DNA from: Octopus vulgaris | Lineage: Eukaryota | NCBI GenBank assembly: GCA_951406725.2 | Contig: CATOCA020000001.1 | Location: forward strand, 6,386,001 to 6,450,000 | Length of the DNA stretch: 64,000 nucleotides | Direction: 5' to 3' | Part shown: piece after piece, positions 39,831-62,116 of the stretch | Layout: each line of letters opens with the position of its first letter | Numbering within the stretch: position 1 is the stretch's first letter | Notes under the pieces: generated by a model | Told to the model about the DNA's origin: nothing | The model's input: only the letters and a program-made list of their open reading frames with translations | Database searches by the model: none | Translations under genes and position numbers: made by a program

Positions 39831-40452
39831 AAATATATATTATATTAAATTAGAGATAAAACCACTATTAGGCAAATCAAACAGTGAAAAACATAAGCCA
39901 ATACATAAAATTAATTTAAAAATATAAAAGTTAAAATTTAAAAAATTATTTAAATAATTTGAACTTATAAATTTTAAATATATATATATACAAATATATA
40001 TATATATATGTGTGTGTGTATGTATGTATATTTTTATATTTATATATTATTTTATTTATTCATTTATTTATTAATTAATTAATTTATTTATTTATTTATA
40101 TAATAATTAAAAAAAATTGATAAATAAATAATTAAATATATTAATTAATAAACAAATTAATAAATAAAATAAAATATAAATATAAAAGATACATACACAC
40201 ATATATATATATATATATATATATTTGTATATATATATATATTTAAAATTTATAAGTTTAAATTATTTAAAATATTTTTTAAACTTTAACTTTTATATTT
40301 TTAAATTAATTTTATGTATTGGCTTATGTTTTTCAATGTTTGATTTGCCTAATAGTGGTTTTATCTCTAATTTAATATAATATATTTATACTATAAAATT
40401 GGATTTAATCCTAAATCTAATTTTTCCCTGCAATTTTGGATTTATTCCCTAA
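39831..40452 (+). mobile_element. AT-rich foldback insertion: ~250-290-bp inverted arms plus 3' tail (PLE-like)
   Basis: TTAGAGATAAAACCACTATTAGGCAAATCAAAC (39850) is mirrored by GTTTGATTTGCCTAATAGTGGTTTTATCTCTAA (40338); flanked by (TA)n. Confidence 0.7.
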
Positions 40453-40473
40453 TATATATATATATATATATAT

Positions 40474-41290
<817 letters not shown>

Positions 41291-42560: not shown

Positions 42561-44277
42561 ACAGATACGGACAGAGAATGGAACAGAGAGAACGAGTGTG
42601 AGTGAAGGAGAGGGAGAGTTTGAGTGTGGGCAAAACAATCTCATAAACCCCACTCCCAAGGAAGAGAAACTAGGAGTTACTTCTACACGTCCTCTTGGAG
42701 ATTATGGGAAGTTAATTTCACATGTGCCCCCGTCCAACTCCTGCATCTGGAGCCCACTTCTCTCTTGACTTCCATACCTCTGTATCTATTCTTGGCCTTT
42801 ACTTTGCACGGGTTGTACCCTATAGTATTTCTGTTTTACTTCCATCAAATCAGTTATGGTCATTTCCACCATGGTAACAAGCTCCTATCTTCTTCCTTAC
42901 TAATTCTTCAGATCCTTTCAACCAAAACAGCTTCGTCATCAACATTTATTCTTGTTAGATAGTAACATTATCTTTAATAATATTTATATGTCTTGTGTAT
43001 ATATATAGATATATGTGTGTGCGTGTACATATATACTACTATGGCACTCCGTCGGTTAAGACGAAGAGGTTTCCAGTTGATCCAGTCAACGGAAGACTAC
43101 TCGTGAAATTCTTTTCAACTCTAGGCAGAAGGTCCGAAATTTTAAGGGAGGCAGCCATCGATTAGATCTACATCAGTTCGAAACTTGTACTTGATTTATC
43201 TACACCGAAAGGATGAAAGGCAAAGTCGACCTCGACGGAATTTGAACTCAGAAAGTAAAGACAGACGAATTACCTATTTTTTTACTACCCACAGGGGGCT
43301 AAACACAGAGGGGACAAACAAGGACAGACAAATGGATTAAGTCGATTATATCGACCCCAGTGCGTAACTGGTCCTTATTTAATCGACCCCGAAAAGATGA
43401 AAGGCAAAGTCGACCGCTTGCTAACGTTTTTGCCAACTCGCCGCCTTAGACTCTTCGTGAAATATATATGCAAGTAGCTGAGCACTCCACAGACACGTGT
43501 ACCCTTAACGTAGTTCTCGGTGAGATTCAGCGTGACACAGAGTGTGACATGGCTGGTCCCTTTGAAATACAGGTACAACAGAAACAGGAAGAGAGAGTGA
43601 GAGAAAGTTGTGGTGAAATAATACAGCAGGGTTCGCCACCAGCCCTTGCTGGAGCGTCGTAGAGCTTTAGGTGTTTTAGTTTAATGAACACTTGCGACGA
43701 GTTGGACTTCATTTCACATTCCTTGGAGAAGAATGACTCACCCTGCGATGGACTGAGTCTCCCGTCCATATGCGGAATATATATGCCAAGGTAGACTGTT
43801 CCCATGCGTCTGGCTGCCAACAGAAGTAACTTTATTTACTATTTATATATGTATATATATATATATGTGTATGTATATGTGCGTATATATGTATGTATTT
43901 GCATGCTTTTTAAATCTAGTAGTTATTCTATCGGTATCTTTTGCTGAACCGCAAAGTTACGGGGACGTAAACACTACAGCATTGGTTGTGAAGCGATGGT
44001 GCGGTGACAAACACAAACATATATATATATATATACATCCGATGGGCTTCTTTCAGTTTCCATCGACCTAATCTACTCACAAGGATTGGGTTAGCCCGTG
44101 GCTATAGAATAAGACACTCACCAAAGGTGCCTCGCAGTGAGATTGAACTCAGAACAATGTGGTAGGTAAGCAAGCTTCTCACCACACAGTCACGTGTCAC
44201 TTTTCAACTTTCTATATATGAATGTATATATTTGTCTATGTAAATATATTGTTATGAGCACACGTACATCGAGCAAT

Positions 44278-46184: not shown

Positions 46185-47043
46185 ACACATTCAGTTTTAA
46201 TTTATAGACACACATTAATTTACAGGGTACAACCTAAGACGAGTGGTCCCCGTGCGCGCAATCGTGTACAAGCGCATCCGAGGAAGCTAGTCGTGACTAG
46301 TCGATCCTTACTTTGTGTTTTTGTGTTTCATTTACTTTGCTAGGTAGTCGTTGTAGGATCGACTAGTCACGACTATCTAGCGCGCGTGCGCGAGTAAACG
46401 AGTGCGCGCACCAGGACCACTCTTCTTAATTAAATGGTATTTAGATTCCACAGCGGAGAAATCCACCCTTGTTAAAACATCTACACAAAACCCCACCATT
46501 TCAGGCTGACTTAACAGAGACCCTACTCTGTGTTACCTCCATCTCTGTTCCCGCCACAAAGCGGCCACGCCCTTGTAAGTTTCGTAACGAAAAACAAAAG
46601 CATTAATTTCCTGATCTCATAATTGGATCACGCACTTTTACGATAATTAATATCGTATCATTAATTTATAGACACACAGACAGAGTTTAAGATGAAAGGA
46701 TGTTCATTCAAGCGTTAAATGGTCCCAAATGAAATAAAAATGAATTTACCTCAGTTTAGTTTTAAACGGTTGCAACGGATCCGGGGTCCCAATTAATTTC
46801 AAATTTACTGATGCCGGAAGTAGATTTAAGTTGGAATAGGAGATGGCAAGTAAGTGGAGATAACTCTCGAAATAGAGGCGGGGTTGGCGGTGCGTTAAGT
46901 AGCTTGCGAACCAAGCACATGGTTCCGGGTTCAGTCCCACTGCGTGGCACCTTGAGCGACTGACTTCTGCTATAGACTCGGGCGACCAAAGCCTTGTGAG
47001 TGAATCTGGTAGACAGAAACTGAAGGAAGCCCCGTCGTAAATA

Positions 47044-47093
<50 letters not shown>

Positions 47094-54741: not shown

Positions 54742-54779
<38 letters not shown>

Positions 54780-54784
<5 letters not shown>

Positions 54785-57084
54785 AAACAAGTAAAAAATA
54801 GAAAATGCTAAAATAATTTTATAGTGAACATTTCAGTACCGGTTTCGGTCATTTTGAGACCTTTTCAACTGTAACGATTAAATAATTAAATTTAGAAAAA
54901 TTAGAAGAAAAGTTTTTTTAAAACAATATTTCTATAGTAGTGTTCAGATTTAAGTGGCATTCTGCCTTTCTCTGACTCCCTTGTTTGCACTTGTGTGTTC
55001 GAGGTAGTTGTGAGTTCTTGGTAGGGTAGTAGAGGGAAGGCTGGTGAGGAAAGGGGGTGGGAGAATCTGGGAGTGCCCTGATGGTCGTATTTTGAATGGT
55101 CAGTGGCGGCTGGCAGTCTCAGTTCAATTCAGGAGAATATTTATATCGACAGGCTTGTTTATAGAATTAGCGTAGGTGTTATACTAAAAAACATTAGTGA
55201 CAAACTTAAGGGGTAGGGGGTGGAGAAGAAGAAGAAGAAGAAGAAGAAGAAGAAGAAGAAGGAGAAGGAGAAGATGATGGTGATGGTGGTGATGATTATG
55301 ACGACGATGATGATGATAACGATGATGATGAAGAAGAAGAAGAAGAAGGAGGAGGAGAAGATGGTGGTGATGATGGTGGCGATGATGATGACGCCGATGA
55401 TGATGATAACGATGATGATGAAGAAGAAGAAGAAGAAAAAAACAGAGAAGGGAGAATATGAATGGGTGTAAATATAGCTATGAAGGGGCTGATTAGTAAT
55501 GGATTCTATGGAGTGTAGTATGTGTGTGTGTATATATATTTTTTTTCTTTTATTCTAAAGTTGAGGTATATTAATTGTTTGTCGTAGACCCGTTAAGAAG
55601 TGGCTTGTATTTTGTAATAAAGAGATTTTCTTTACTTATTCTTTGTCTCGAGGTTGTATCGTCCCTAAATTGGTAGAGGGGGAAAATTCTGAAGTTTGGT
55701 GTTTTTTTGTTGGCGCAAGTATCTATGTGTTGGCTAAAAGCTATTTTTCTGTTTTGGGGAATTTTTATCTGGGATCTGTGCAGGGCCATTCGTTTACGCA
55801 AACCATTTTTTGTTTGGCCTATGTACTGCTCTTGACACCCGGAGCAGGTTAGTGAGTATATTAGGTTCTCCGAAGCACATGTGAAGTTGCTTTTCACTGT
55901 AAACCGTTGTCCCTGTTTGAAGGAGAACTCAGAACCCTCGATTAGATAGTCGCATATCCCGCAATTGGGTCTTCCACATTTTTTTACTGTCGGCTTCTGT
56001 GTTGAAGAGTGAATTCGGGCTTGTGTAAGGAGACTTTTCATGGATCTAGGCTGTCTTTTGCTTTTTATGATCGTGTGTGTTTGGAGGATTGTGTTCATTC
56101 TGTGGTCTTTTTTTAGGAGGGGTATGTTGTGGAGGATGGTGTCGAAGGCTTCGTTATTGAGAGGGTTGTGTGTGGAGATGTATGGTAAGGCTTTTGGTTG
56201 TAAGTTTTTCTTTGATTTGGGATGTCTCAGTTCCTTGATGTTAAGTTGAAGGGCACGTTGAATGCACTTGTCAATAAGTGAAGGTGGATAGTTCCTGGTG
56301 ATTAGGGTATCTTTTAGTTCTTGTAGTCGTGTGTCTCTGGTGTTTGCGTTAGAGACTATAGTGCATATCCTTTTTGCTAGATTGAAGGGGATATTCATCC
56401 TGGTGTGTCTGGGGTGGCATGAATTGAATGGAAGATATTGCTTAGAGTCTGTAGGCTTATAGTATATGTCTGTTTCCATTATATTATTAGCTTTCTTAAT
56501 GAGGATATCGAGGAAGGGGAGTTGTTGTTGGCTATATTCCATCGTGAATTGGATGTTTACGTCCAGTCCGTTTAAAATTTTCTGGAATTCTATGAGTTTT
56601 TCTATATTTTTATGCCAAAGGATGAAACAGTCATCTAGATATCTCTTCCAGTTGTTTTCTATGTAGATGGAGAAAGGGCTGCCATATCTTTCTAGAACCT
56701 TACGATACAGACTGATCTCTAGGTATCCTATGACTAGGTTGGCAAAGGAGGGGGCCATTCGTGTACCCATCGCAGTCCCCGATTTTTGTCGGTAGAAGTT
56801 GTCATTGAAGGCGAAGAAGTTATTTTCCAGGATGAATTTAACCCCTTCTATCACAAATTCTTTTTTGATGCGGTGTGGTAGTTCGTTGGCGTGATTCTCT
56901 AGCCAGAATTGGATTGCCTCTAGTCCTAGGTTGTGGGGGATATTGGAGTAGAGGTTGACTACATCGAAGGATACCAGTATGGTGTTTTTGTTTATAGTAT
57001 TCGGTAGGTGATTGAGCATATCTAAGTCGTCCCTTATATAGCTTTTGACATGTTTGAGGAGTGGTTTTAACAGGGTGTCTAAAA
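54780..57084 (-). mobile_element. Inverted duplicate of the 3' 2.3 kb of the Penelope-like element (RT core, GIY-YIG, 3' UTR, HHR at 54834-54871)
   Basis: Reverse complement of 58900-61200; ORF 55571-57118 is identical to the 717-aa ORF from LDTLLKP onward. Confidence 0.95.
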
Positions 57085-57085
57085 C

Positions 57086-57802
57086 ATTAGAACATTTTTC
57101 TCTAACAACGCTAACCAAGGACCTCCAAACGCGTCAATATATGGGATCAATACTCTAACAACATACCAAATGAAACACCACATAATACCACAATGGAACA
57201 AATCACTCAGAGATAGAAAGTTCGCCTTTTGGAAGATGATCCAAAACAACAACAAAGCGGATATATACGAAAAATGGCTCAACCGGACCCCGTTAATCCT
57301 CCCACGTAAATTCCAGTTCAAAGCTATTACAGAAGAACCTGAAACACAAAGACACCTCAGGGAGAGAATGGCACTGGAAAAAATGAAAATGGAAATAGAA
57401 CTTCTGAAATTGAGGGCCCAAACGAATGAGGATAAAATAAAATCCACCGATGAAGATATCAACGAAGAAATTCGCAAAATGACCCAAGGCCCAGATCAAG
57501 AGAAGTTCTCCAAACTATGGAAAGAGGACTGTGAAAATGAAGAACTAAAATCTCTCCAACGCTGGGAGAAAAGCGCCACTTGGTTCTCAGACTATGAAGC
57601 CGTCTTTCAAACAGAGCACGCCTCCAACAACCCTTTCCAGAAAATAAGAAAACCAAAACAACACCCAAACACCGATACACACCTGTCTAAAAATCGGAAC
57701 CTTCACTACTATCAAAAAAAGAATACAGGACCTAACCCCAACTCTGTAAGCAGCCAGCGATACAATATCAGGAATACCCCACTTCAAGCAGAGAAAGGAT
57801 AA
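57086..57802 (+). CDS. PLE upstream ORF (coiled-coil-like), open back to the inversion junction
   Basis: 210 aa from ATG 57170 with no stop back to 57086; charged heptad-like ETQRHLRERMALEKMKMEIELLKLRAQTNEDKIKSTDEDINEEIRKM. Confidence 0.7.
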   Translation: MRTFFSNNANQGPPNASIYGINTLTTYQMKHHIIPQWNKSLRDRKFAFWKMIQNNNKADIYEKWLNRTPLILPRKFQFKAITEEPETQRHLRERMALEKMKMEIELLKLRAQTNEDKIKSTDEDINEEIRKMTQGPDQEKFSKLWKEDCENEELKSLQRWEKSATWFSDYEAVFQTEHASNNPFQKIRKPKQHPNTDTHLSKNRNLHYYQKKNTGPNPNSVSSQRYNIRNTPLQAEKG

Positions 57803-58082
57803 ATCAACACCCACAGCATAGACACTGCAACCTCATCCCCACCCAAAGGAGTTACCAACGAAATCTTCGTCCCATTAACCGGTTAAACAACCATGCACAA
57901 CAAACCCACACCACTTGCAATGATTACCAACGAAGGCCTCCTAGAACACCACACCCGAATATGGGATATCGGGATGCTCTCCTCAATACTGCTCCAAGAA
58001 CACACACCACAAATCACAACAGGAGACCCCTAATCAACAAAGAACAACTATATACTAGCTACCGTCCCAACCACCGCATTCA

Positions 58083-60413
58083 TTTTTTAGACCCAATACG
58101 CAAACACAGAGACACAAGATAGCACCAAACAAGCAGGAGGAACCAAAAGTAATAAAAATTATTAATCTAACTCACAAGGAACTAACAGCAAACCAAATAA
58201 ACATACTTTCCAAAGGACTCAAGTTTACACCCACCCCACAACACCCCAACTACAATGAAATGAAAGAAGACATCGCAGAATTCTGCAGAAAATTAAGACT
58301 TACTGAGGAGCTATACGATAAATACAACGAGGACGAATCGTTAGCCAGAAATAGGAGTAACTACACCCCCTCGAAAGGTAAGAATAAAACACTTGATGAT
58401 TTCTGTGACCACATATCAAATTACCCATATCAACATATGCACAAACAAAAACACAAACCAAACTTCAGCAAAAAAGAATGGGCTGAGTTGAACAAATTAA
58501 AACTAGATAAAACAATAACAATCAAAGAGGCCGATAAAGGGAGTGCTGTTGTCTTAATGGATACGACATTTTACATAACTTTGGTACTTTCTATGCTGGA
58601 AGACACAACATACTATGAAAAGGCACAAAACTACAGTCAACAAAAAATAATGAGGGAACTAAAATCCATATTAAACCCATACAAAGCAGGGCTCACCGAC
58701 AAAGAATATGATTATATGACCAATTTCACAAGTAAAACTAGCCAATTCTACGGTATACCTAAGATCCACAAAAGTGAAAAAATAAGCAACGCATGCAAGA
58801 TAGCTACAGACAAAATAATTAAAGTCCCTAATCCTAATGACCTCAAATTGAGACCCATAATAGCAGGTCCCGCATGCGAAACCCACCGCCTCAGTAACTT
58901 TTTAGACACCCTGTTAAAACCACTCCTCAAACATGTCAAAAGCTATATAAGGGACGACTTAGATATGCTCAATCACCTACCGAATACTATAAACAAAAAC
59001 ACCATACTGGTATCCTTCGATGTAGTCAACCTCTACTCCAATATCCCCCACAACCTAGGACTAGAGGCAATCCAATTCTGGCTAGAGAATCACGCCAACG
59101 AACTACCACACCGCATCAAAAAAGAATTTGTGATAGAAGGGGTTAAATTCATCCTGGAAAATAACTTCTTCGCCTTCAATGACAACTTCTACCGACAAAA
59201 ATCGGGGACTGCGATGGGTACACGAATGGCCCCCTCCTTTGCCAACCTAGTCATAGGATACCTAGAGATCAGTCTGTATCGTAAGGTTCTAGAAAGATAT
59301 GGCAGCCCTTTCTCCATCTACATAGAAAACAACTGGAAGAGATATCTAGATGACTGTTTCATCCTTTGGCATAAAAATATAGAAAAACTCATAGAATTCC
59401 AGAAAATTTTAAACGGACTGGACGTAAACATCCAATTCACGATGGAATATAGCCAACAACAACTCCCCTTCCTCGATATCCTCATTAAGAAAGCTAATAA
59501 TATAATGGAAACAGACATATACTATAAGCCTACAGACTCTAAGCAATATCTTCCATTCAATTCATGCCACCCCAGACACACCAGGATGAATATCCCCTTC
59601 AATCTAGCAAAAAGGATATGCACTATAGTCTCTAACGCAAACACCAGAGACACACGACTACAAGAACTAAAAGATACCCTAATCACCAGGAACTATCCAC
59701 CTTCACTTATTGACAAGTGCATTCAACGTGCCCTTCAACTTAACATCAAGGAACTGAGACATCCCAAATCAAAGAAAAACTTACAACCAAAAGCCTTACC
59801 ATACATCTCCACACACAACCCTCTCAATAACGAAGCCTTCGACACCATCCTCCACAACATACCCCTCCTAAAAAAAGACCACAGAATGAACACAATCCTC
59901 CAAACACACACGATCATAAAAAGCAAAAGACAGCCTAGATCCATGAAAAGTCTCCTTACACAAGCCCGAATTCACTCTTCAACACAGAAGCCGACAGTAA
60001 AAAAATGTGGAAGACCCAATTGCGGGATATGCGACTATCTAATCGAGGGTTCTGAGTTCTCCTTCAAACAGGGACAACGGTTTACAGTGAAAAGCAACTT
60101 CACATGTGCTTCGGAGAACCTAATATACTCACTAACCTGCTCCGGGTGTCAAGAGCAGTACATAGGCCAAACAAAAAATGGTTTGCGTAAACGAATGGCC
60201 CTGCACAGATCCCAGATAAAAATTCCCCAAAACAGAAAAATAGCTTTTAGCCAACACATAGATACTTGCGCCAACAAAAAAACACCAAACTTCAGAATTT
60301 TCCCCCTCTACCAATTTAGGGACGATACAACCTCGAGACAAAGAATAAGTAAAGAAAATCTCTTTATTACAAAATACAAGCCACTTCTTAACGGGTCTAC
60401 GACAAACAATTAA
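58083..60413 (+). CDS. PLE reverse transcriptase plus GIY-YIG endonuclease
   Basis: IINLT..LSKGLKFTPTP (upstream of ATG 58260), KEADKG, FYGIPKIHK, LRPII, SFDVVNLY, GTAMG, RYLDD, PFLD, CGRPNCGIC, NLIYSLTC..YIGQT..R..H; frame intact. Confidence 0.95.
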   Translation, partial: FFRPNTQTQRHKIAPNKQEEPKVIKIINLTHKELTANQINILSKGLKFTPTPQHPNYNEMKEDIAEFCRKLRLTEELYDKYNEDESLARNRSNYTPSKGKNKTLDDFCDHISNYPYQHMHKQKHKPNFSKKEWAELNKLKLDKTITIKEADKGSAVVLMDTTFYITLVLSMLEDTTYYEKAQNYSQQKIMRELKSILNPYKAGLTDKEYDYMTNFTSKTSQFYGIPKIHKSEKISNACKIATDKIIKVPNPNDLKLRPIIAGPACETHRLSNFLDTLLKPLLKHVKSYIRDDLDMLNHLPNTINKNTILVSFDVVNLYSNIPHNLGLEAIQFWLENHANELPHRIKKEFVIEGVKFILENNFFAFNDNFYRQKSGTAMGTRMAPSFANLVIGYLEISLYRKVLERYGSPFSIYIENNWKRYLDDCFILWHKNIEKLIEFQKILNGLDVNIQFTMEYSQQQLPFLDILIKKANNIMETDIYYKPTDSKQYLPFNSCHPRHTRMNIPFNLAKRICTIVSNANTRDTRLQELKDTLITRNYPPSLIDKCIQRALQLNIKELRHPKSKKNLQPKALPYISTHNPLNNEAFDTILHNIPLLKKDHRMNTILQTHTIIKSKRQPRSMKSLLTQARIHSSTQKPTVKKCGRPNCGICDYLIEGSEFSFKQGQRFTVKSNFTCASENLIYSLTCSGCQEQYIGQTKNGLRKRMALHRSQIKIPQNRKIAFSQHIDTCANKKTPNFRIFPLYQFRDDTTSRQRISKENLFITKYKPLLNGSTTNN

Positions 60414-61103
60414 TATACCTCAACTTTAGAATAAAAGAAAAAAATATATATACACACACACATACTACACTCCATAGAATCCATTACTAATCAGCCCCTT
60501 CATAGCTATATTTACACCCATTCATATTCTCCCTTCTCTGTTTTTTTCTTCTTCTTCTTCTTCATCATCATCGTTATCATCATCATCGGCGTCATCATCA
60601 TCGCCACCATCATCACCACCATCTTCTCCTCCTCCTTCTTCTTCTTCTTCTTCATCATCATCGTTATCATCATCATCGTCGTCATAATCATCACCACCAT
60701 CACCATCATCTTCTCCTTCTCCTTCTTCTTCTTCTTCTTCTTCTTCTTCTTCTTCTCCACCCCCTACCCCTTAAGTTTGTCACTAATGTTTTTAGTATAA
60801 CACCTACGCTAATTCTATAAACAAGCCTGTCGATATAAATATTCTCCTGAATTGAACTGAGACTGCCAGCCGCCACTGACCATTCAAAATACGACCATCA
60901 GGGCACTCCCAGATTCTCCCACCCCCCTTTCCTCACCAGCCTTCCCTCTACTACCCTACCAAGAACTCACAACTACCTCGAACACACAAGTGCAAACAAG
61001 GGAGTCAGAGAAAGGCAGAATGCCACTTAAATCTGAACACTACTATAGAAATATTGTTTTAAAAAAACTTTTCTTCTAATTTTTCTAAATTTAATTATTT
61101 AAT

Positions 61104-61151
61104 CGTTACAGTTGAAAAGGTCTCAAAATGACCGAAACCGGTACTGAAATG
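61104..61151 (+). ncRNA. Minimal type I hammerhead, U3-A8 variant, in the PLE 3' terminus
   Basis: CAG-TTGAAAA-GGTC tcaaaat GACC-GAAA-CCGG-TA-CTG; palindromic ACCGGT stem III; predicted cleavage after 61143. Confidence 0.8.
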
Positions 61152-61233
61152 TTCACTATAAAATTATTTTAGCATTTTCTATTTTTTACTTGTTTTTTCA
61201 TATATATCAACTCGTGTGTTCCTTTTCACCCTT

Positions 61234-61275
<42 letters not shown>

Positions 61276-62116
61276 TTCTACTTGTTTCAGTCATTTGGCT
61301 GTGGCCATACTGGAGAAACGCCTTTAGTCGAGCAAATCGACCCCAGGGCTTATTCTTTCTAAGCCAAGGACTTATTCTATTGGTATCGTTTGCCGAACCG
61401 CTAAGTTACGGTTACGTATACAAACGAACATTGGTTTGTTAGTCGATAGTAGGGGGACAACCACAAACATACAAATACACACACACACAGATATATATAT
61501 ACGACAGGCTTCTTTCAGTTTCTTTCTACCAAGTCGACTCACAAGGCGGCCCGAGGCTATAGTAGAGGGACTTGCCGAAGATGCCACGCAGTGAGACTGA
61601 ACCAGGAACCATGTCTTTGGGAAGCAAGATTCTTACCACACAGCCATGTATATTCTTTTATTTTCTTATTTTTTTCAGTCATTTGCATACGACCATACTG
61701 GAGCAACACATTGTGGAACAATTCAACAGTGGGATCTCTTATTCTGAAGCCTTGTAGTGATTTTATCGCTCTGTTTACCCGAACCGACCGGTTACGGGAC
61801 GGAAAAACATTAACACCAGTTGTCAAGGGTTAATAGAAGGACAAACAGATGCAAAAACAGAGAAGTATGTATACATACATATATATCTGTACACATATAC
61901 ATATATAATAAATAATATTTCAAATGTGTACATATATATATATATATGATGGGATTCTTTCAGTTTCCGTCTACTAAATCCACTTACAGGACTTTGGTCG
62001 TTTGGAGGCTATAGTAGAAGAGACCCAAGTTTGCCACGAGGTGGCACTGAACCTGAAACACTGTGGATAGTAAGCAACGTATTTACCACAACCACACCTG
62101 CACTTATATGAGTGAG

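Follow-up and report, generated by a model that had tools for sequence, protein, structure and literature searches.

A window of 64,000 nucleotides from Octopus vulgaris (assembly GCA_951406725.2, CATOCA020000001.1:6,386,001-6,450,000, forward strand; all coordinates below are those of the window) carries at 57086..61241, on the + strand, a 5'-truncated copy of a young endonuclease-containing Penelope-like element (EN+ PLE) that ends in a (TA)n run and is here assigned to family A. A search of the octopus genome gave 924 candidates, 40 of which were scored and 30 fetched, and the window copy was found to be 99.1-99.9% identical to the 29 other copies over positions 57086-59900. The first open reading frame (ORF1) of the element and the frame encoding its reverse transcriptase (RT) and endonuclease (ORF2) are different frames, and RT is likely made through a programmed -1 slip at an in-phase U UUU UUA heptamer, with a collision between ribosomes as the candidate trigger.

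ORF2 is intact and occupies the -1 frame, which is open for 784 codons (58059..60413, + strand). A preliminary description of this DNA had placed the opening of the RT frame at 58059 and its conserved N-terminal motif ahead of the first ATG, and both coordinates hold (IINL at 58158, KGLKF at 58212 and the first ATG, downstream of the motif, at 58260). The motifs DKG, YLDD and LIY..CxxC..YIG are present in the sequence. Pfam matches were obtained for RVT_1 (E 3.5e-8) and for GIY-YIG (E 3.8e-4; 21.1 bits, slightly below the cut-off of 22.6), the latter at ORF2 residues 688-775, C-terminal to the RT and with its CxxC at 60138. The CX4CxxC linker between RT and endonuclease (60006) is kept in five families.

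ORF1 is represented on the same strand by a remnant at 57086..58122, equivalent to residues 67-411 of the family ORF1, with a predicted helical core followed by a low-complexity tail rich in R, N, P and T. As described previously for the frame at 57736-58122, the codons at 58081-58092 read CAT TTT TTA GAC. The slippery heptamer T TTT TTA (58083..58089, + strand; Phe400-Leu401) is thus in phase with ORF1, and a -1 slip on it would lead into the RT frame. Ten codons with no predicted structure (58090..58119, + strand) separate the Leu codon from the ORF1 stop TAG at 58120..58122 (+ strand; context TAG CAC), which is the proposed roadblock position.

The window copy has lost the first 66 ORF1 codons through the 5' truncation at 57086 and so cannot make an ORF1-RT fusion, despite its intact ORF2. 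It also carries, at 57777..57780 (+ strand), a C run that lacks one base relative to the family (C4 here, C5 in the full-length copy L004). The additional -1 shift that had been postulated within 57736-57802 is this one-base deletion, which breaks ORF1 in the window copy alone, since the extra base is present in 29/29 other copies; it is either a mutation or an assembly error. A full ORF1 of 411 amino acids, with its ATG just 3' of the upstream repeat of the element, was found in 17 of the 29 other copies, and 27 of them have at least 325 open codons upstream of the heptamer. No indel occurs at the heptamer in any of the 29, and all share a 12-codon distance from the Phe to the end of ORF1 and an RT frame that is open from 8 codons ahead of the Phe. 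The family does not have one continuous ORF: ORF1 and the RT-GIY-YIG frame overlap in -1 and the heptamer is conserved. One 5'-truncated family A copy (L079:2628-2635) has a run of seven T and thereby a natural in-frame join of ORF1 and RT.

Five sister families (B-F) were found in the Octopus genome, the RTs of B-E being 57-72% identical to that of family A. Six T followed by A (T6A) stands at the junction in 17/17 rows of family B (13 distinct loci), 8/9 of C, 11/11 of D, 6/6 of E and 17/17 rows of F, in phase with ORF1 in intact copies, and a decayed seventh family (L076) also has the motif. Elsewhere in 47,951 nt of coding sequence from 15 elements, TTTTTT[AG] occurs 13 other times; at the junction it was in phase in every family examined. 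Two overlapping ORFs are present in six families. Family F is decayed, with further indels near the junction in many copies (L109-L128); one of these, shortly after KFTPTP, is common to many copies and suggests a defective subfamily spread in trans. Two family D copies (L072, L085) have lost one base from a C run just 5' of the heptamer, which puts ORF1 out of phase, and RT frames of 846-847 codons suggest several family D copies with such a loss. Distant RTs used as queries against the same genome recovered either families A and D alone, as judged by coordinates and frame lengths, or an unrelated pyrimidine-rich PLE with no ORF1 match.

The junction is also conserved outside the octopus genome. 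Of 79 metagenome loci fetched with an RT alignment, seven matched the ORF1 profile, and all seven have two overlapping ORFs, with T6A or T6G in phase close to where the RT frame begins. The same motif is in phase in L137, whose contig begins within ORF1, in L187, which has a different ORF1, and in L208, which was fetched later; the outside loci with an in-phase heptamer number 10, and the RTs of the outside loci are 30-45% identical. L208 was the one held-out locus, and it carried the predicted heptamer. It looks like a complete element of the clade, and its contig is catalogued as part of a bacterial metagenome-assembled genome, which probably reflects contamination with eukaryotic DNA.

At the protein level, Phe-Leu was found in the last 45 residues of 63/73 ORF1 relatives of 330-480 amino acids, compared to 8/146 preceding windows. 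In an ORF1 alignment of 60 rows with 17% mean identity, F400 belongs to the five columns that do not vary; the Phe-Leu count is the fairer measure, because most alignment rows were chosen among motif-bearing proteins. The residue before the Phe is never Q, K, E, M or W, whose codons are unable to end in U (0/63; background 0.198, p 9e-7), which fits conservation of U UUU UUA as a unit. The signal follows the canonical -1 pattern, X XXY YYZ, in phase, conserved and at the 5' end of the overlap. Programmed -1 frameshifting very probably takes place here, with ORF1 protein as the majority product and a fusion of about 1,175 amino acids as the minority one. The slippery site put forward in the preliminary description is supported, and its heptamer, phase and two-ORF layout are conserved far beyond family A.

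The ORF1 protein had been described as a coiled coil. Long helices (residues 82-243, predicted local distance difference test score mostly >90), a disordered tail and a heptad-like stretch at residues 6-43 are predicted, and the coiled coil itself is only partly borne out. Relatives numbered 539 at E<=0.001 among 50%-identity cluster representatives, of which the best 150 were inspected; one cluster carries a Mytilus name. No Pfam family matched at E<=0.05, no usable Atlas match was obtained and Foldseek returned none at E<=0.001; the best structural matches (Z 9.0, root mean square deviation 4.8) were generic helical bundles, which were uninformative and were rejected as a guide to identity. 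ORF1 appears on sequence comparison to be an unnamed protein family without a Pfam match, distinct from published PLE ORF1s. Its core is under purifying selection, with nonsynonymous and synonymous divergence (pN and pS) between families of 0.165 and 0.64-0.75, respectively, and its protein is probably structural or RNA-binding. No fused ORF1-RT protein was found among longer proteins in a weak search, the longest in the top 150 representatives having 609 and 536 amino acids, and neither a locus scan with the single protein P0015 nor a scan of viral contigs found loci.

No RNA structure of the kind that usually accompanies such heptamers was predicted. The 75 nt after the heptamer (58090-58164) have a minimum free energy of -0.9 kcal/mol (z +0.64). 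No canonical stem-loop or pseudoknot 5-9 nt downstream was predicted in families A, B, C and F or in the outside locus L131, and a scan for H-type pseudoknots in the same set found no stem of at least 4 bp starting 3-12 nt after the heptamer. The same scan exceeded its shuffles in 11/11 loci with an AAAAAAC heptamer, which served as positive controls. No long-range duplex beat shuffles in families A-F. Among loci with a U6 heptamer a clear hairpin was found only in L129 (z -3.1), with L137 and L187 marginal. Gly-rich tails in lineages with longer stop distances (mean 2.0 vs 0.42 Gly) hint, at the protein level only, at G-rich structures.

What is constrained instead may be the distance from the heptamer to the ORF1 stop. 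This distance was expressed as a length, the number of residues from the heptamer Phe, counted as 1, to the end of ORF1, so that length 12 places the stop at codon 13, as in the window. Length was counted in 63 proteins, 10 without the Phe-Leu motif being left out. It is exactly 12 in 21/63 and below 12 in 0/63, while nulls built from the elements' own sequence gave probabilities of 0.03-0.04 for 12 and 0.46-0.59 for less than 12. Among the length-12 proteins, identity over the ten residues that follow Phe-Leu is 10%. The flanks vary, from 104 to 236 amino acids between core and Phe (a further value of 300 probably belonging to L187, whose ORF1 is non-homologous) and from 20 to 68 codons between heptamer and N-terminal motif. 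Length is 12 in 8/16 U6 lineages with DNA and 13-22 in the others. It is also 12 in L152 and L199, which have other heptamers, no clear structure and separate RT branches, in an RT tree of unnamed loci only from which 25/85 rows with short RT cover were left out and in which L199 is a long branch. C at the +4 position weakens termination, and C follows the stop in 7/10 length-12 loci compared to 0/8 others. A 10-codon periodicity of the longer distances (22, 32, 42) was considered and rejected (23/39, p 0.013, with a post hoc window and related rows).

A spacing of this kind is where a second ribosome would be expected. In yeast, disomes at stop codons leave footprints of 58 nt (10-codon) and 61 nt (11-codon) (PMC7784341), and the 10-codon spacer of the octopus element matches the 61-nt class, that is, an 11-codon collided pair. 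Reporter work in E. coli showed that stalling of a ribosome at UGA makes -1 slips on a heptamer more frequent in the ribosome behind it, without an RNA stimulator and most strongly when the spacer is 9 codons (Smith et al. 2019, PMC6815119); PMC8310308 cites the collision work together with a herpes non-stop mutant case. In the octopus element most ribosomes would make the 411-residue ORF1 protein, and a minority would slip -1 at the heptamer into the RT frame. While one ribosome terminates with the stop codon in its A site, the next would stand 11 codons behind it with UUU in the P site and UUA in the A site. Its 3-base step into a tighter collision would be obstructed, we infer, and a 2-base step favoured, so that RT output would depend on ribosome load and on the speed of termination. 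Collision with the ribosome terminating at the ORF1 stop is the trigger that we tentatively prefer, at somewhat less than an even chance. We put forward a shade more cautiously still that throughout a broad EN+ PLE clade it may be the terminating ribosome, rather than RNA structure, that stimulates -1 frameshifting, the stop lying one collided-ribosome length past U UUU UUA.

Several observations weigh against a collision trigger. Lengths other than 12 occur in 42/63 proteins and in 8/16 lineages with DNA, among them families C and E (22), family D (13) and the held-out locus L208 (21), and family C, with its distance of 22, is likewise without predicted structure (z +1.55). Marginal pseudoknot scores above shuffles were obtained for L137 and L187, two loci of length 12. 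Length 12 looks ancestral (9 changes over 74 tips), which indicates retention rather than many independent origins, and its excess is no longer significant at 40% clustering, although the lack of short tails remains significant down to 35%. Codon 13 is TGG in families C, D and E and in the decayed family G, so that in this subclade conservation could act on a base or on a residue of the RT frame rather than on the stop. Relatives with TTTAAAC mostly stop 2-3 codons after the heptamer, and the floor of 12 is thus not general to PLEs. Finally, outside nucleotide data are few, and most ORF1 protein matches come without DNA.

The strongest alternative keeps the programmed -1 slip at the same site and has it occur at the basal rate of the heptamer or with another stimulator, such as a bound protein, the nascent peptide or long-range pairing, the stop spacing having another cause, for instance a requirement for the ORF1 tail or for a linker residue in the RT frame. 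We give this close to an even chance. U6A alone is a strong slippery site, the conservation evidence is the same as for a collision, length 12 is missing in half of the DNA lineages, and RT-frame codon 13 is hydrophobic in 12/15 U6 loci. Against it, the identity of the tail is at the random level while its length is held, W, Y or F stands at codon 13 in only 6/42 proteins that do not stop there, and no long-range duplex exceeds shuffles in families A-F. The slip itself could be dispensed with if ribosomes terminated at the ORF1 stop and restarted nearby in the -1 frame, tethered by the U run at a fixed distance. The 36-nt spacing is indeed fixed, and an RT-frame ATG stands exactly there in families C and D, but the RT-frame codon at that position is ATA, CTA, GTA, CTG, TGT or TCC in 13/15 loci and the U run keeps the phase of a slippery site. 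Moreover, RT-frame stops number 0/165 between heptamer and codon 13, where about 15 are expected, compared to 53/600 upstream of the heptamer, a depletion that reinitiation does not require and that makes it very unlikely. The contrast is compositional in part, as stops are few in the third frame as well over this stretch (3/165).

Splicing would yield RT from a shorter RNA if TTTTTTAG were a 3' splice site. T6AG is found in all six families (one old D copy has T6AAG), a codon class starting with G follows the Leu in 46/63 relatives, and PLEs are known to keep introns (PMC8557442). The AG is nevertheless missing in 4/10 outside loci (L131, L137, L138, L208), which makes this reading highly improbable, and in 17/63 proteins the residue after the Leu has a codon unable to start with G. 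Strong donors are out of phase, including GTAAGC at 57746, which the preliminary description had found to be out of frame with RT and which is in phase 0 where RT needs phase 2. The contig sets of 8 runs guessed to be RNA contained no splice-like joint across the site, and 7/8 bridge it with at least 31 letters on each side; the check is weak, because contigs drop rare forms, and as their RNA status is guessed these sets show neither expression nor an absence of splicing. The sole joint listed was an AA..AA replacement in the repeat of the element. If a polymerase added a T during transcription or reverse transcription, an in-frame template would result, as in the T7 copy L079; one match has T5. 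However, T6 is kept in 61/62 matches among loci L001-L060 (which overlap), no indel occurs at the site in the contig sets guessed to be RNA, and such slippage would not fix the codon phase of the run, and we regard it as the least probable source of RT.

As judged from sequence, the junction is a real, deeply conserved junction of a two-ORF, Neptune-type PLE clade, with a probable -1 frameshift. The octopus element shares with the Neptune and Nematis EN+ PLEs described in PMC8557442 the RT, the CX2-5CxxC linker, GIY-YIG with CCHH, the pseudo-long terminal repeat (pseudo-LTR), an inverted 5'-truncated partner and (TA)n ends. EN+ PLEs are stated there to be single-ORF, and PMC6431247 distinguishes a single ORF with endonuclease from two ORFs without it; in contrast, the octopus clade has two overlapping ORFs. 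A killifish Neptune is reported to have a short, non-overlapping ORF1 (PMC12602865) and esterase ORF1s have been described in PLEs (PMC3905857, PMC5408684); the relevant passages of these three papers state no frameshift for esterase or short upstream ORFs. The single-ORF picture is thereby corrected for a large group of EN+ PLEs, and a family of unnamed ORF1 proteins is defined.

The legend to Fig. 1 of PMC8557442, in which the clade is unnamed, already describes PLEs whose ORF1 can be set apart from RT by a frameshift accompanied by a pseudoknot; the legend in the preprint version is similar and likens Coprina to Athena. The two-ORF frameshift PLEs have in common with the octopus element an ORF1 of helical or coiled-coil type that a frameshift connects to RT, and the octopus element differs from them by its C-terminal GIY-YIG, its U6A or U6G heptamer and its lack of a predicted pseudoknot. 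What is new, as far as those legends go, is the combination of no predicted 3' structure with a stop-spaced layout. The PLE with a frameshift and pseudoknot in the published legend is reportedly Athena. The octopus element does not belong with Athena and Coprina, which lack an endonuclease and are telomere-associated, since it has GIY-YIG and its copies are dispersed over many contigs, nor with Naiad, whose endonuclease is N-terminal to the RT, since its GIY-YIG follows the RT.

HIV-1 gag-pol uses the heptamer U UUU UUA, often followed by G, with a 3' stem-loop, and makes its first protein in excess over polymerase. The octopus element has this heptamer in common with it and differs in having no predicted stem-loop and a 0-frame stop close by. 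Its heptamer one ribosome upstream of a stop, without an RNA stimulator, is the layout of the engineered E. coli system of PMC6815119; that system is artificial and bacterial with a 9-codon peak, and the octopus element is natural and eukaryotic with a 10-codon spacer, inferred from conservation only. Full-text literature searches, whose coverage did not extend to Repbase and some older PLE literature, found no frameshift in an EN+ PLE and no natural stop-spaced -1 signal, and the portions available of PMC3846280, PMC5718144, a retrozyme preprint (10.64898/2026.07.22.740005), PMC8915115 and PMC7544508 held nothing decisive. In the literature covered, collision-stimulated -1 frameshifting was shown in engineered bacterial reporters, and a natural, selected example was not found. 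If the collision trigger is correct, these elements would be a case of natural, selected, collision-driven recoding in eukaryotes, with RT synthesis dependent on ribosome load and retrotransposon RT dosage tied to collision surveillance. They would also add a class of frameshift signal that lacks RNA structure and escapes searches based on pseudoknots. With its fixed distance from heptamer to stop, a cassette of 50 nt puts the collision idea within direct reach of an ordinary reporter.

Other PLE loci carry other heptamers. A AAA AAC, together with a predicted and conserved H-type pseudoknot and an overlap of about 200 codons, was seen in L170, L180, L184, L185, L189, L190, L192-L194, L196, L201 and L206. 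These loci, with pseudoknot scores above shuffles, the ORF1 stop about 200 codons on and no endonuclease in the two that were scanned for domains (of the 11 controls), are presumably Athena-like. A separate branch (L139, L142, L144, L146, L147, L148, L151, L152, L157, also L153 and L158) has ORF1s that are long and unnamed and carries T TTA AAC in phase, with GIY-YIG in 8/8 loci scanned, the ORF1 stop mostly within 2-3 codons, and a GACC..GGTC hairpin in several. Alongside it, a GGTAAAC-type heptamer was seen in L141 and L143. If a terminating ribosome does provoke the slip, the design may have been re-used with other heptamers in other PLE branches.

The remaining features of the window follow the usual PLE layout, in which an inverted copy of about 2.3 kb of the 3' part precedes the element at 57086-61241. 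This copy, at 54773..57084 on the - strand, is further 5'-truncated, comprises RT core, endonuclease and 3' repeat with a (TA)n end, and gives a 2313-nt inverted match of 99.7%. The 3' pseudo-LTR occupies 60904..61241 (+ strand; 338 nt, 99.4% identical to L004:927-1263), and in full-length copies its sequence also stands immediately before the ORF1 ATG. Both repeat copies contain a weak match to a hammerhead-like motif (61098..61162, + strand; Rfam HH9, 19.7 bits, E 0.4, gathering score 52). A (TTC/TCA)n-rich tract lies in the 3' untranslated region (60520-60760) and is copied in the inverted arm (55210-55460). Dispersed repeats of 150-200 nt, 74-83% identical to the flank of L004 and unrelated to the junction, are found at 40451-40654, 44024-44186, 46896-47047, 61491-61646 and 61935-62109. 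Elsewhere in the Octopus genome, the pyrimidine-rich PLE (L239-L268) forms an abundant family with a proline-rich N-terminus and open frames that reach about 1,000 codons; it gave no match to the family ORF1.

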